From contig JBMFUT010000023.1 in assembly GCA_049966395.1 (NCBI GenBank), forward strand, positions 1 to 11,516: 11,516 nucleotides of DNA, in the 5' to 3' direction. Positions 1 through 8,345 of the stretch are shown in pieces (within the stretch, counting starts at the first letter, position 1; each line of letters begins with the position of its first letter). A model generated the notes under the pieces. It had not been told where the DNA came from, did no database searches, and saw only the letters and a list, made by a program, of their open reading frames with translations. The translations under genes were made by a program, and so were the position numbers. Source of the stretch: Candidatus Micrarchaeia archaeon. GTDB lineage: Archaea > Micrarchaeota > Micrarchaeia > Micrarchaeales > CABMGC01.

Positions 1-69
1 GGCAACAACGGACAGATAAATGGCGTTAACTTTGTCAGCAACTGGTGGAATGGCTACACGCCTCCATAA
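1..69 (+). CDS. 3' end of a gene running in from the left edge, possibly a LamG/concanavalin-like secreted protein (partial)
   Basis: Frame +1 reads GNNGQINGVNFVSNWWNGYTPP then TAA at 67-69. It resembles the '(DxSG)NGNNG...' ending I recall from LamG-domain surface proteins. Only 22 codons are visible. Confidence 0.5.
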   Translation, partial: GNNGQINGVNFVSNWWNGYTPP

Positions 70-136
70 TCGCAATGCAAAAAGGCAACAAGGCGCAAGT
101 TCTTCTGCGGACATAATGCATGAAGTGCACTCATTG

Positions 137-1063
137 CTAAAACGAACTGAAGTCTATTATCCCGGCCATCAGTTCCTTCGCCCTTGCCAGCGAAAGGGGT
201 CGCATGCCTTTCTTTTTAGCATAGGCGCACTGATATCTTATGTATGCCTCGTTTATCTTGGTGTTTGGATTTATCTCCTTGCAGCGCTGTATGTAGTTGT
301 ATATTATCGAGAATGCCTCCTCCTCGCTGAGCCCCCTTATGTTTGTCAGGTATGGAGCCAGCACAAGGTTTACTACCCTGTGCCTGAAGTCAGGTATGGG
401 AGTGTTTAGGAGTTGTTCTATCCAGCCGTAGCGCTTGCCCTGCGTTGCTGGGATCTGCGCAACCTCCGCCCTTGGCTGTTTCACGCTCTTCGCATACGCC
501 GAGACTTCCTTAGGTATTTCGGAGCTTTTTATCGGAAGCCCCGAGAGCACTTTCTTCTTTGCGGCCTCCGCAAGAAGCTGCACTACGGCGTATTTGTTCA
601 AGTATACGAAGCCGTCGCGCATGTTCTGGTGGATGAGGGCGAATTCCTCCCTGTCGTTGGGCACAACCTTAAGATAGTCGTAAAATGCAATCTTGAAATC
701 CTTTCCTTCGATAGAGGCGGGGCACCCGAGCTCTTTTGAGATTCTTAGTATGTTTTCTTCAGACTCTTCTACCAGGGCGCCAAGGATCCTCTTTGCCTCG
801 CCCTCTGCAAAAAGCTTGATTGGATGCGCTCCCATGACGCTTACCAGGAGCCTTGCAAAGGCGTAGCTTACCAGATAAGTCTTCTTCAAATCAGAATAGC
901 CTGTCTTGAGAAACTCCGCCTTTCCTGCAAAGTCTTCTTCAAGCCTGATCTTCGCTGCGTCGAGGTATGACTTCTCAACCTTAGTTATGTTTAGAGCAGA
1001 AACTATGCTTTTTGCCTCTTCCGAAAAAGGATACTTGTAAGCGAAATCCAAATCGTCAGGCAT
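137..1063 (-). CDS. priL: DNA primase large subunit with a C-terminal PriX-like domain and no 4Fe-4S domain
   Basis: N-terminal 'FAYKYPFSEEAK', 'SYAFARLLVS...FAEGEAKR' and 'FYDYLK...FALIHQNMRDGFVYL' match the archaeal PriL N-terminal domain, and the gene lies close to pcn. The C-terminus 'WIEQLLNTPIPDFRHRVVNLVLAPYLTNIRGLSEEEA' is PriX-like. ATG at 1063 is preferred over TTG at 1078 because a TATA-like element lies about 25 nt upstream. Confidence 0.88.
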   Translation of the reverse strand: MPDDLDFAYKYPFSEEAKSIVSALNITKVEKSYLDAAKIRLEEDFAGKAEFLKTGYSDLKKTYLVSYAFARLLVSVMGAHPIKLFAEGEAKRILGALVEESEENILRISKELGCPASIEGKDFKIAFYDYLKVVPNDREEFALIHQNMRDGFVYLNKYAVVQLLAEAAKKKVLSGLPIKSSEIPKEVSAYAKSVKQPRAEVAQIPATQGKRYGWIEQLLNTPIPDFRHRVVNLVLAPYLTNIRGLSEEEAFSIIYNYIQRCKEINPNTKINEAYIRYQCAYAKKKGMRPLSLARAKELMAGIIDFSSF

Positions 1064-1082
1064 AATAGGAAATCTCAACCAA

Positions 1083-1104: not shown

Positions 1105-1389
1105 TCAGTCCCAAAGCTCTTTGAGGTCCTTGCCGCTGAAAAGTATTTCCTTCAGCTCCTTAGCCATTGCAGCGTCGTGCCTTCTTATCCATTCCAAAAG
1201 CAGAGTGGCATGCTCTTTTTCGTCATCGCGGTTGTGCGCCAGCACCGCGGCCAATGACCTGTCCTTAGTTGCGCTGACTCTCTCGTCATACCACATCATT
1301 GCCTGAAGCTCTTCGACAAGCGACTGCCTTGCCCTGTTCAGGTCCTTTGTTTTCTCGTCTACATTTTCCTCGTACGCCAAAATCACCAT
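1105..1389 (-). CDS. Ferritin-like protein of the encapsulated ferritin (EncFtn/Flp) family
   Basis: 'RARQSLVEELQAMMWYDER...LAHNRDDEKEHATLLLEWIRRHD' matches the two-helix EncFtn pattern (SLxEELxAxxWYxxR...HNxxEExEH...LEWIRR). The start is uncertain (TTG 1392, ATG 1389, GTG 1386 or TTG 1380). Confidence 0.88.
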   Translation of the reverse strand: MVILAYEENVDEKTKDLNRARQSLVEELQAMMWYDERVSATKDRSLAAVLAHNRDDEKEHATLLLEWIRRHDAAMAKELKEILFSGKDLKELWD

Positions 1390-1411
1390 CAATATTCATT
1401 GCATGAAAGCT

Positions 1412-2155
1412 TCAGCTTTCTATGTAGGGCGCCAAATAGTATGTCACCGAGGCATCGCCAATGTTGTAGCTGACCTTCAATGGCTCGTTTGTCTTCATTG
1501 ATATGCTCATAGAGCTACCCATAGGGCACGCCTTAACTATGTTCTCCAGGTACTCGAGATTGAAAGTGACATCTGCGCCCTTGTCGGCCTTAAGCTTCTT
1601 TACTATGCTTCCGTCTACACCGTGCAACTCTTCCAGTTCTCCAGAATCACCGTGGGCGTTTATGACAAGTTCGTCCTTAGAAGCCTTGAATGCTACATAC
1701 GAAGATATCAGACTTGCGTCCTTTATTATTTCCTTTAGCGGATCCCCGGCAACCTCTGCGGTCGCGTCGAATTCCACGTTCGGTTCCTTCTCCACGTTTT
1801 TCCTTATGTCGATCATTGGCAGCTTGTATCTCCTCCTGCTGTTCTCGCCTATAAACTCCAACAGCAGCTTGCCATTTGTATCTTTCATCACAAGAGACTC
1901 GTTGTCCCTTGTCCTTGAAAGGACCTTGCTGAGGTTCTCCAAGTTGAGGCCGACGCTTGTGTTCTTCTCGACGTCGTACTTCTCGAAGGCCTTGCTCGGT
2001 ATGAAGAATGAAACCATGCTTATGCTAGAAGGATCCATTGCGCGGAGGCTTATTCCTTCGCTCGAAATTGTGAAAGACCCTTCGTCTACAAGGTTCACTA
2101 TTGATTCTACACAGTCCCTCCAGTATTTCGCATTAGAAATCTTGGCCTCAAACAT
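1412..2155 (-). CDS. pcn: DNA polymerase sliding clamp (PCNA)
   Basis: 247 aa with 'MFEAKI', 'GISLRAMDPSSISMV', 'FNLEYLENIVK' and the C-terminal 'YYLAPYIE'. A GGGGG run (SD-like) lies just upstream. Confidence 0.98.
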   Translation of the reverse strand: MFEAKISNAKYWRDCVESIVNLVDEGSFTISSEGISLRAMDPSSISMVSFFIPSKAFEKYDVEKNTSVGLNLENLSKVLSRTRDNESLVMKDTNGKLLLEFIGENSRRRYKLPMIDIRKNVEKEPNVEFDATAEVAGDPLKEIIKDASLISSYVAFKASKDELVINAHGDSGELEELHGVDGSIVKKLKADKGADVTFNLEYLENIVKACPMGSSMSISMKTNEPLKVSYNIGDASVTYYLAPYIES

Positions 2156-6720: not shown

Positions 6721-6750
6721 ATTCGGCGCAAAGTGAGCATAGGTGTACAC

Positions 6751-7731
6751 ATGCTTGTGATGGGCATAGAAAGCAGCGCCCACACTTTCGGCGTAGGCAT
6801 AGTAGACGGCAAGAGGATAATCGCCAACGAAAAGGAGATGTATCCTATAGATACCAGGGGGATGATACCTTCAAAAGTTGCAGAGTTCCATGCGAGAAAT
6901 TTCGACAATGTCATAAAAAGAGCACTCGAAAGCGCGTCTGTTGGAATCGGCGACATAGAAGGAATAGGGTACACAAAAGGTCCTGGTCTTGGGCCCTGCC
7001 TACAGGTAGGTGAGCTAGCCGCTAAGACAATTGCACATGAAAAAAGTATTCCCATAGCGGAAGTCCACCACGGCGTTGCCCATATAGAGATTGCAAAGTT
7101 AACTGCGAGGCTCAATGATCCTGTTGCGCTATACGTTAGCGGGGGAAATTCGCAGATACTGAAAAAACGCAAAGAGCCTTTCAGCCACTATCATGTTCTT
7201 GGCGAGACATTCGACATAGGCGTGGGCAACATGCTAGACTCTTTTGCGAGGGAACTGAAGCTCAGGCCGGCGTGGGGCTCTGCAGTTGCAAAGGAAGCTG
7301 AGGGCGGCAGATATATCAAGATGCCGTACACCGTAAAAGGCATGGATTTCTCTTTCACCGGGCTTCTGACCAGGGCAACGTCCATGATAGGAAAAGCCAG
7401 TAGCAAGGACCTCTGCTTTTCTATTCAGGAAACCGCTTTTGCAATGCTCTGCGAGGCTACAGAGAGGGCGCTCATGCTCACTGGCAGCAGGGAGCTCTGC
7501 GTGTGCGGTGGCGTTGCACAGAGCGCAAGGCTCAGGGAAATGCTTGACGATATGGCATCTGAGCACCGCATACGCTTCGGCGCAGCTCCTAACGATTACA
7601 ATGCCGACAACGGCGCAATGATTGCGTATGTTGCTGAAAGGATGATAGAAAACGGTATAGTGTCAAGGCCGCGTGACTGCAGTATAATGCAAAAGTACAG
7701 AATAGACAAGGCGGAGGTGCCATGGTCATGA
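6751..7731 (+). CDS. kae1: KEOPS complex tRNA N6-threonylcarbamoyltransferase Kae1
   Basis: 'MGIESSAHTFGVG', 'GPGLGPCL', metal-binding 'HHGVAHIE', 'LYVSGGNSQ', 'GETFDIGVGNMLD', 'PYTVKGMDFSFTG', 'GGVA' and 'DNGAMIA'. ATG 6751 is preceded by AGGTG. Confidence 0.98.
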   Translation: MLVMGIESSAHTFGVGIVDGKRIIANEKEMYPIDTRGMIPSKVAEFHARNFDNVIKRALESASVGIGDIEGIGYTKGPGLGPCLQVGELAAKTIAHEKSIPIAEVHHGVAHIEIAKLTARLNDPVALYVSGGNSQILKKRKEPFSHYHVLGETFDIGVGNMLDSFARELKLRPAWGSAVAKEAEGGRYIKMPYTVKGMDFSFTGLLTRATSMIGKASSKDLCFSIQETAFAMLCEATERALMLTGSRELCVCGGVAQSARLREMLDDMASEHRIRFGAAPNDYNADNGAMIAYVAERMIENGIVSRPRDCSIMQKYRIDKAEVPWS

Positions 7732-8345
7732 GCGGCACTGCAATTATAAGCGAAGGCGCGGAAGCCAAAATTTACATGCAGAGCATATTCGGCGCAAATG
7801 CAATAGCTAAAGTGAGAGAGCCAAAAAAATACAGGCAGGCTGCGCTCGACGAAGAAATAAGGTCTTCAAGGACAAGAAGCGAAGCCAAGATAATGGCGGT
7901 TGCAAATAGCTTCGGCATTCGCTCCCCATCGCTGCTCGCCGTAGGCAAGTACACCATAATAATGAGCAAGATAAGCGGCAAAAGAATGAGCTCTTTGAAA
8001 AAGCCTAGCATGCGCATATTTTACAAGCTAGGCATGCTTCTCGCAAAGTTGCACGAGGCAGGAATAGCGCACGGAGACTTCACTCCGGCAAACATAATCA
8101 TATCGAAAGGCTTGCCTTATGTAATAGACTTCGGCCTGGCTGAAATAACAGGCAGCATTGAGGAGAAGGCAATAGACCTGCTGCTCATGAAGCGCTCGAT
8201 AGGCGCAAGGCAGTACGCAGCAATGGAAAGGGCTTATGCCGCCGCCTACACTCCTGCCAAGGCCGTAATAAAAAGGCTCGCCGCCATAGAAAGGCGCGGA
8301 AGGTACCAGACAAGGACCATGCAGGCGGCCGAAGAGTCTGACTGA
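7728..8345 (+). CDS. bud32: KEOPS complex kinase/ATPase Bud32
   Basis: 'EGAEAKIY', 'KVREPKKYR', 'RTRSEAKIM', 'HGDFTPANII', 'IDFGL' and the C-terminal 'RRGRY'. ATG 7728 overlaps the kae1 stop as ATGA; ATG 7722 is an alternative. Confidence 0.96.
   Translation: MSGTAIISEGAEAKIYMQSIFGANAIAKVREPKKYRQAALDEEIRSSRTRSEAKIMAVANSFGIRSPSLLAVGKYTIIMSKISGKRMSSLKKPSMRIFYKLGMLLAKLHEAGIAHGDFTPANIIISKGLPYVIDFGLAEITGSIEEKAIDLLLMKRSIGARQYAAMERAYAAAYTPAKAVIKRLAAIERRGRYQTRTMQAAEESD

Follow-up and report, generated by a model that had tools for sequence, protein, structure and literature searches.

Here we describe priL-X, a gene on an 11,516-nucleotide (nt) stretch of DNA from a member of the Micrarchaeota (contig C23 of assembly G000; this whole stretch is called the window below). 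We suggest that priL-X very likely encodes the sole large (regulatory) subunit of the replicative primase, in which a PriX-type module replaces the 4Fe-4S domain and which is predicted to be cluster-free. We draw this from the identities of the domains, their fold, the missing cluster ligands, a conserved nucleoside triphosphate (NTP) motif, the single copy of the gene and its distribution across one archaeal order. The list of open reading frames (ORFs) and their translations places priL-X at 137..1063 on the minus strand, with 308 codons followed by a stop at 137-139. An alternative TTG start at 1076-1078 (minus strand) would give an ORF of 137..1078 with 313 amino acids (aa); residue numbers used here refer to the 308-aa form that begins with ATG. 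The protein, PriL-X, is made up of a PriL N-terminal domain (residues 1-192; 488..1063), a flexible linker (residues 193-209; 437..487) and a helical C-terminal domain (CTD) of the PriX type (residues 210-308; 140..436), all encoded on the minus strand.

Profile searches separate the two domains clearly. The Pfam PriX family (PF18689) matched residues 212-297 with an E-value of 7.1e-14 and 52.3 bits against a cut-off of 25, and NCBIfam NF033412 (primase_PriX) matched residues 211-305 with 111.8 bits against a cut-off of 50, so that the last ~100 residues score above the curated cut-offs of both PriX profiles, whereas their relation to iron-sulfur (Fe-S) CTDs is only remote. The NCBIfam equivalog models for PriL matched residues 9-196 only, far under their full-length cut-offs, and Pfam DNA_primase_lrg (PF04104) gave a sub-threshold 20.5 bits against a cut-off of 22.4, over profile positions 2-61 of 266, which lie upstream of the Fe-S part of that profile. 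No AEP domain was detected in PriL-X by the Pfam scan. With phmmer, the N-domain matched the N-terminal domain (NTD) of Sulfolobus solfataricus PriL (1ZT2_B) at an E-value of 1.2e-11, and the top sequence match in the PDB, found with HMMER, was chain 5OFN_B, an engineered PriL-X chimera to which we return below (E-value 2.6e-24, query residues 30-297). The PHROGs profiles matched a primase family in only two of 11 proteins, and PriL-X was not among them. An initial annotation, which had been made from the letters of the DNA and its ORFs, had proposed that the first ~200 residues are the PriL N-terminal domain and that, after a short linker, the protein ends in a PriX-like domain. The linker and C-terminal sequences that it quoted are both present in the ORF translation, and its N-domain assignment agrees with the NCBIfam, phmmer and Foldseek results for residues 1-192, as well as with the identity of this part to the N-domain of another PriL, P0158.

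The predicted fold leads to the same division. An AlphaFold2 model built on 101 sequences had a predicted local distance difference test score (pLDDT) of 93.6 for full PriL-X, and the CTD folded alone scored 92.2. The only uncertain stretch was the linker, with a mean pLDDT of 59 around residue 205 against 85-98 elsewhere, and DSSP assigned no secondary structure to residues 192-209. With Foldseek, the N-domain matched the PriL-NTD of S. solfataricus (1ZT2_D) at an E-value of 1.3e-8, with a template modelling (TM) score of 0.77 and a root-mean-square deviation (rmsd) of 3.1, and the CTD within the full-length model matched PriX (4WYH) with an rmsd of 1.4 Å over 86 columns. When the CTD was searched alone, the three matches at an E-value of 1e-3 or lower were all S. 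solfataricus PriX, and the next match had an E-value of 1.6; the superpositions on 4WYH and 5OF3_C had an rmsd of 1.5-1.7 Å over 86 columns, TM scores of 0.73-0.76 and 31% identity. In a VIA-align comparison of the CTD with all representative chains, 5OF3_C had a Z-score of 13.5 with 98 residues aligned, the next chain scored 5.4, and the Fe-S domain of a eukaryotic PriL (6DI2_A) scored 4.0. By both methods, therefore, the CTD aligns better with PriX than with the Fe-S domain of PriL, as its first description as PriX-like had implied.

In S. solfataricus PriX, residues D70, R72 and R74 bind the initiating NTP, according to the passages of PMC5700102 that deal with them. The HMMER alignment to 5OFN_B places these three residues on D225, R227 and R229 of PriL-X, so that a D225-F-R227-H-R229 motif (377..391, minus strand) stands opposite D70-S-R72-K-R74 of PriX. 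We measured conservation in 154 full-length homologues (P0001-P0155, 290-345 aa, after one 249-aa fragment had been dropped), and found D225 and R229 in 100% and R227 in 99% of them; W214, the A236-P237-Y238 triplet and Y257 were each conserved in 100%.

In solved primases PriL docks on PriS through its N-domain, and the ordinary N-domain of PriL-X should likewise bind a separately encoded PriS. The flexible linker of ~17 residues would tether a PriX-type module of four to five helices where the 4Fe-4S domain normally stands, and by homology with S. solfataricus PriX this module would use D225, R227 and R229 to hold the initiating NTP at the N-terminal end of its central helix. We suggest that the linker could let the module swing onto the active (elongation) site of PriS, where the first dinucleotide would be made, and that the module may then move away during extension, as we infer from what passages in PMC5700102 say of PriX. 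The primase would thus work without any iron-sulfur cluster. Limiting the length of the primer, which part of PMC6042085 proposes for PriX, could be a further role of the CTD.

PriL-X has no PPC motif in its translation and only three cysteines, at positions 114, 261 and 279. The initial annotation had called the three scattered, and had noted that neither a PPC motif nor a clustered Cys set is present. Its count and the missing ligand set both stand, but the cysteines of the CTD are not scattered: Cys261 (281..283, minus strand) occurs in 154 of 154 homologues and Cys279 (227..229, minus strand) in 145 of 154 (94%). Two cysteines were found in the CTD of 132 homologues, three in 13, one in nine and four in none. 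Could the module then still hold a metal centre, with C261 and C279, perhaps together with His228 or a partner protein, binding a cluster or zinc? The conservation of these residues speaks for it, since H228 is also kept in 97% of homologues and C261 is nearly invariant in the one-chain AEP-PriX primases, in which a PriX module follows an AEP catalytic domain; a small cysteine-rich gene also usually follows priL-X in relatives. However, a 4Fe-4S cluster cannot be ligated by two cysteines alone, C279 is not kept in most AEP-PriX relatives, and S. solfataricus PriX, which has no cysteine at the aligned positions, is described as free of Fe-S in passages of PMC5700102 and PMC9258230. Neither CTD cysteine aligns with a cluster ligand: when the family CTD was compared by hhalign with the Fe-S CTDs of 35 Micrarchaeia-type PriLs, the second Fe-S ligand aligned with L292, C279 aligned with a valine, and C261 lay in a 10-residue insert relative to the Fe-S CTDs. 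We therefore regard a retained metal centre as very improbable.

The small gene just mentioned encodes a 43-62-aa protein with seven invariant cysteines, and in relatives it lies directly after priL-X, with anything from a 29-nt overlap to a 23-nt gap (for example, L005:1793-1951, plus strand). Its pattern is CxxC..CxxCG[KR]..C..CxxC..G[KR], and its matches to Pfam zinc fingers are weak. It was present in 32 of 44 relatives' loci, after one 5-Cys ORF unlike the rest had been dropped, and in none of seven loci with an Fe-S PriL; in the phylum sample introduced below it was found in 42 of 46 and 56 of 65 genomes of families f1 and f3, respectively. We considered whether it could have arisen as a new gene that stands in for the cluster, and this idea is weakened by weaker homologues, unlinked to priL, in families that have an Fe-S PriL. 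A predicted complex of PriL-X with the seven-Cys protein scored 0.04 against a mark of 0.32, which counts neither for nor against an interaction. In G000 the gene encodes 47 aa and is outside the window, at C14:136-279 (plus strand), with 135 nt before it on contig C14. Contig C23 begins 136 nt past the stop of priL-X, and window positions 1-136 contain no ORF of this kind. Since the gene lies so near the start of C14, and since the gene that comes right after it in L005 has a 90-aa match farther down C14, the ends of C23 and C14 are probably neighbours, parted by an assembly break or an insertion.

That PriL-X is the only large subunit of its genome was examined directly. The G000 assembly comprises 694 kb in 34 contigs, and a profile search of it with PF04104 and PF18689 matched priL-X only in each case. 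A single PriS gene, encoding about 380-414 aa, was found on a separate contig (PF01896 match at C1:89190-89846). No second PriL was detected in G000 by tblastn with five Fe-S PriLs or by an Fe-S CTD profile run over six frames, and no free PriX gene was found there. The genome, estimated to be 89% complete, thus holds one priS, no second priL, whether canonical or not, and no free priX. A protein homology search for short free PriX with residues 206-308 also returned no candidates, and for this reason our trees include no PriX from Sulfolobales.

NCBI, where it gives the homologues a product name, calls them 'DNA primase noncatalytic subunit PriX', and assigns them to Candidatus Micrarchaeia, Micrarchaeales or Micrarchaeaceae; one JGI record of a homologue reads 'DNA primase large subunit'. 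(Four homologues that group with sequences from Micrarchaeota carry the label Marsarchaeota.) Taken at its word, the NCBI name would make PriL-X an accessory PriX subunit, and the real Fe-S PriL would then be hidden in the missing part of an incomplete assembly of 34 contigs. We consider this extremely unlikely, because residues 1-192 are a PriL N-domain by both sequence and fold, and because the wider survey finds no such PriL. Our phylum sample consisted of 251 genomes, with families f1 and f3, both in the order of the window, set against 139 genomes of other families; the tallies take in two unpublished genomes, G210 (f1) and G038 (f3), and dropping both changes nothing material. No full match to PF04104 was seen in any of the 111 f1 and f3 genomes, including the closed or near-closed one-contig genomes G017, G032, G058 and G123, and the 11 of 111 that match this profile at all do so weakly, each through an N-part match within a PriX-bearing ORF. 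Moreover, no gene like that of P0158 was found in 246 genomes of f1 and f3. The NCBI name, which comes from a domain-level model, therefore hides the status of these ~310-aa proteins as the only PriL of their genomes.

The same survey shows how widely the architecture is spread. PriL-X has 137 homologues of near its own length, and all 120 among the matches listed carry PF18689. The PriX domain is present in 45 of 46 f1 and 63 of 65 f3 genomes (108/111), and in none of the 139 genomes of other families, 112 of which match PF04104 over profile positions ~2-205. The single genome of a further family in the same order (f2) keeps a 307-aa PriL with four cysteines. The PriL-PriX architecture thus marks one order of Micrarchaeota and is lineage-wide in f1 and f3, whereas the sister orders mostly keep a four-Cys PriL.

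We also asked whether loss of Fe-S assembly could explain loss of the cluster, and rejected this idea. SufBD has two matches in G000, and is found in 46 of 46 f1 and 62 of 65 f3 genomes. Because these genes are retained, loss of the assembly machinery is not the cause of the changed primase, and the organism is not iron-sulfur-free in general. SufBD had no match in three families with a four-Cys PriL (0/6 in f7, 0/2 in f8 and 0/3 in f14), several of whose genomes are 96-100% complete.

How did the module come to stand there? Two sets of relatives bear on this question. The N-domain of PriL-X is 42% identical (E-value 1e-47) to that of P0158, an Fe-S PriL with a PPC-type four-Cys CTD (PF04104, 60.7 bits), and 28-34% identical to those of other Micrarchaeia Fe-S PriLs, whereas BLAST between the CTDs of PriL-X and P0158 gave no match. 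The CTD shares 48-52% identity (E-values 1e-26 to 1e-28) with P0165, P0172 and P0174, three proteins in which an AEP catalytic domain takes the place of the PriL N-domain. All three come from a group of 36 proteins that cluster together by homology of their N-terminal parts, and in the 26 that were aligned these parts carry AEP catalytic motifs. This combination, an N-domain like that of P0158 without a CTD match and a CTD close to AEP-PriX, argues for replacement rather than decay. We built a CTD tree of 68 rows and 109 columns, with 22 hand-picked members of the 154-protein family, five other PriL-X proteins, 31 AEP-PriX proteins and 10 short proteins, after dropping P0194, P0234 and P0261 for short coverage. 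In 94% of bootstrap trees the 22 family members grouped together, with P0172 as their sister (97/89). From these comparisons we think it likely that a PriX-type module took the place of the Fe-S domain a single time, in an ancestor shared by two families of one order, that it did not arise by decay, and that its closest relatives are the C-terminal modules of accessory AEP-PriX primases in other archaea. The initial annotation had spoken of a fusion of PriX to PriL, and the two domains are indeed joined; however, the protein is better read as a resident PriL whose Fe-S domain was replaced, because its relatives have no free PriX gene.

The competing scenario is that nothing was acquired, and that the resident Fe-S domain, stripped of its four cysteines and of the C-terminal sub-domain, drifted in situ to a PriX-like form. 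PriX and the PriL CTD are homologous folds, and the hhalign comparison described above detects remote homology between the family CTD and the Fe-S CTDs (95.6% probability, 52 columns, with the second Cys ligand at L292), so that very fast in-situ divergence has to be kept in mind. In addition, tblastn alignments of Fe-S PriLs continue into the CTD of PriL-X at ~29% identity, and in-situ loss does occur in this class. The PriL of family f10 (G050, L137:1345-2271, plus strand) lacks all four ligand cysteines, yet its CTD can clearly be aligned with that of the f11 PriL (G051, L136:1282-2313, minus strand), which has its cysteines. Within this class, f10 seems to have come to a cluster-free PriL independently, by a second route, and it shows what in-situ loss looks like: a decayed CTD that stays recognisable, unlike that of the priL-X family. 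Neither PF04104 nor PF18689 matched any genome of these two families (0/6 in f10 and 0/11 in f11 for both profiles), and f11 has priS immediately downstream of priL. Against decay in PriL-X, the Fe-S CTD profile scores the ORF at only 12.6 bits, and the family CTD profile matches none of the 35 Fe-S PriLs used, with a faint 24.5 bits on an intermediate protein, P0232. P0158, the nearest relative by N-domain, shows no BLAST similarity in its CTD, while AEP-PriX proteins, with their unrelated architecture, are 48-52% identical to the CTD of PriL-X. We therefore judge decay unlikely, and prefer replacement of the Fe-S domain.

Several points weigh against the interpretation put forward here and should be set beside it. 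On the side of function, the interpretation assigns no role to the conserved C261 and C279, the genome is 89% complete, and the equivalents of PriX Y103 and D140 are not confidently mapped in PriL-X, with Y103 aligning to I258, beside the invariant Y257. From analogy we propose that the CTD would bind NTP, take part in initiation and carry no metal. On the side of origin, the remote homology with Fe-S CTDs counts for divergence in place, and the CTD tree, with its 109 columns, its weak backbone (27/68), no root and no Sulfolobales PriX, gives neither the direction nor the donor of a putative module transfer. In a quick N-domain tree of 65 rows, the 22 family members and P0158 form a clade (value of 100 in the SH-like approximate likelihood-ratio test, SH-aLRT) apart from other PriL-X proteins, but P0158, with its Fe-S CTD, lies inside the PriL-X clade and not beside it. 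P0158 (334 aa) is also a singleton on one 3.6-kb metagenome contig, and among 248 genomes of the order the only counterpart found was the 36%-identical gene of f2. Therefore, the history may be more complex than a single replacement, or the contig may be chimeric; P0158 might represent the last relative to bear an Fe-S domain, the outcome of a reversal or the product of a chimeric contig.

The one-chain relatives of the CTD are worth describing, since they are its closest kin. We scanned species-representative genomes for them and obtained 79 loci. Full-length AEP-PriX relatives were found at three Aenigmatarchaeota loci (L055, L056:4806-5942 and L125), and matches to the PriX domain at 44 Nitrososphaerales/Nitrosocosmicus loci (within L082-L133, from soil Nitrososphaeraceae, several per metagenome-assembled genome, MAG), at four Thermoproteota-labelled loci and at 27 Micrarchaeota loci; one further, unexpected match lay on a 1.95-Mb contig labelled Alphaproteobacteria (L102). 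All three Aenigmatarchaeota genomes checked also carry, at another place, a normal PriS-PriL(Fe-S) fusion gene (442-451 aa), and the AEP-PriX gene is therefore accessory in them. At L056 this gene lies ~3.6 kb from a tyrosine integrase and adjoins a restriction-modification pair. Phage records searched with P0165 by tblastn yielded no match.

Outside the order of the window, a PriL N-domain joined to a PriX module was seen in P0162, P0175, P0194, P0195, P0209, P0234 and P0239. The N-domains of these proteins are 24-28% identical to that of PriL-X, except that P0209 and P0239 gave no BLAST match in this part, and their CTDs occupy three further places in the CTD tree. This hints at repeated, independent joining of the two domains.

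Other features of the window can be dealt with briefly. An EncFtn-like encapsulated-ferritin gene (E-value 3.5e-31; 1105-1392, minus strand) lies between priL-X and a PCNA gene (1412-2155, minus strand), all on the same strand. A conserved replication operon upstream of priL-X was considered and rejected, as EncFtn is present in one and PCNA in three of 44 relatives' loci. A scan for promoters and terminators found nothing above shuffled expectation. Further along, a Kae1/TsaD gene (6733-7731, plus strand) and a Bud32/RIO-type kinase gene (7722-8345, plus strand) are separate genes with a 10-nt overlap, an unfused KEOPS pair.

Whether priming needs the 4Fe-4S cluster of PriL has long been disputed, with one side proposing a redox-switch function for the cluster. 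Until now the strongest evidence to the contrary has come from an engineered Sulfolobus chimera, and native Sulfolobus PriL keeps its cluster. PriL-X offers a clean natural case, in which the cluster domain is gone from a single-copy subunit, and a PriX module would take over its task, across an order whose members still make Fe-S clusters for other proteins, and it provides a ready-made system for the study of Fe-S-independent priming, consisting of PriS and one 308-aa partner.

Our results also bear on how PriX and the primases of DPANN archaea have been counted. Passages in PMC9258230, PMC10250227, PMC12770985 and PMC12680538 treat PriX as confined to Sulfolobales or to 'some Crenarchaeota', and part of PMC7414124 states that DPANN cluster 1, which includes Micrarchaeota, encodes 'canonical priS and priL', as does a 2026 preprint. 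Contrary to these papers, which run up to 2025, PriX is not confined to Sulfolobales or Crenarchaeota. There is an annotation problem here, in that NCBI names the proteins 'PriX' and comparative studies counted Micrarchaeota as having a 'canonical priL'. The family is recognised at the database level, through the Pfam and NCBIfam matches and the NCBI product names, and we found no description of a natural PriL-PriX protein in the papers searched in full text. Kazlauskas et al. (2018) placed PriX, PriCT-1/2 and the PriL CTD in one fold class, according to the relevant part of PMC5862659, where a PriL-PriX protein is not mentioned. PriL-attached PriX modules fall at no fewer than three to four places in the tree, and PriX is free-standing in Sulfolobales, so that the initiation module of primase may have been renewed repeatedly. 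We consider it possible, although at somewhat less than even chances, that a whole archaeal order replicates its chromosome with a cluster-free primase whose PriL initiation module was swapped for that of a mobile-element-style, one-chain primase, and that renewal of the module from the mobile gene pool may recur. If this is true, the PriX of Sulfolobus would exemplify a general process and would not be a crenarchaeal oddity.

Among known systems, the rearranged primase NEQ395 of Nanoarchaeum equitans (DPANN cluster 2; described in part of PMC10250227) resembles PriL-X in being a DPANN-specific rearrangement of primase domains, but it joins PriS and an Fe-S-bearing PriL CTD in one chain, whereas PriL-X has a separate PriS and its cluster domain has been replaced. 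A canonical PriL (PF04104) shares the homologous N-domain (28-42% identity to Micrarchaeia Fe-S PriLs), the length of ~310 aa and the separate PriS, and differs in the four-Cys 4Fe-4S CTD that PriL-X lacks. The AEP-PriX primases of Aenigmatarchaeota, Nitrososphaeraceae and Thermoproteota MAGs share W, D-G-R-H-R, P-Y-L and Cys positions with PriL-X, and the CTD is closer to their modules than to Sulfolobus PriX (31%); however, they carry an N-terminal catalytic AEP domain rather than a PriL N-domain, and they are uncharacterised and, in Aenigmatarchaeota, accessory. Sulfolobales PriX (4WYH, 5OF3) has the same fold and NTP motif, likewise has no cluster ligands, and is a free-standing 154-aa third subunit of PriSLX whose partner PriL keeps its own Fe-S domain. 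In PriL-X, by contrast, the module and the PriL N-domain form a single covalent chain, and the primase is left with no Fe-S domain. The closest parallel is the Chimera of Holzer et al. (2017; 5OFN), in which S. solfataricus PriL residues 1-211 are joined to PriX residues 42-154, and which, according to passages in PMC5700102, primes at the wild-type level without an Fe-S domain. Both proteins have the same domain order and junction, with a PriL N-domain, a short linker and a PriX globular domain but no Fe-S domain, and both have the D-x-R-x-R NTP motif. They share only ~25-31% identity, and the two conserved CTD cysteines of PriL-X are absent from the Chimera. Moreover, the Chimera was man-made from two genes of one crenarchaeon, whereas PriL-X is natural, is the sole large subunit and is found order-wide in DPANN archaea. 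PriL-X is a natural counterpart of the engineered chimera.

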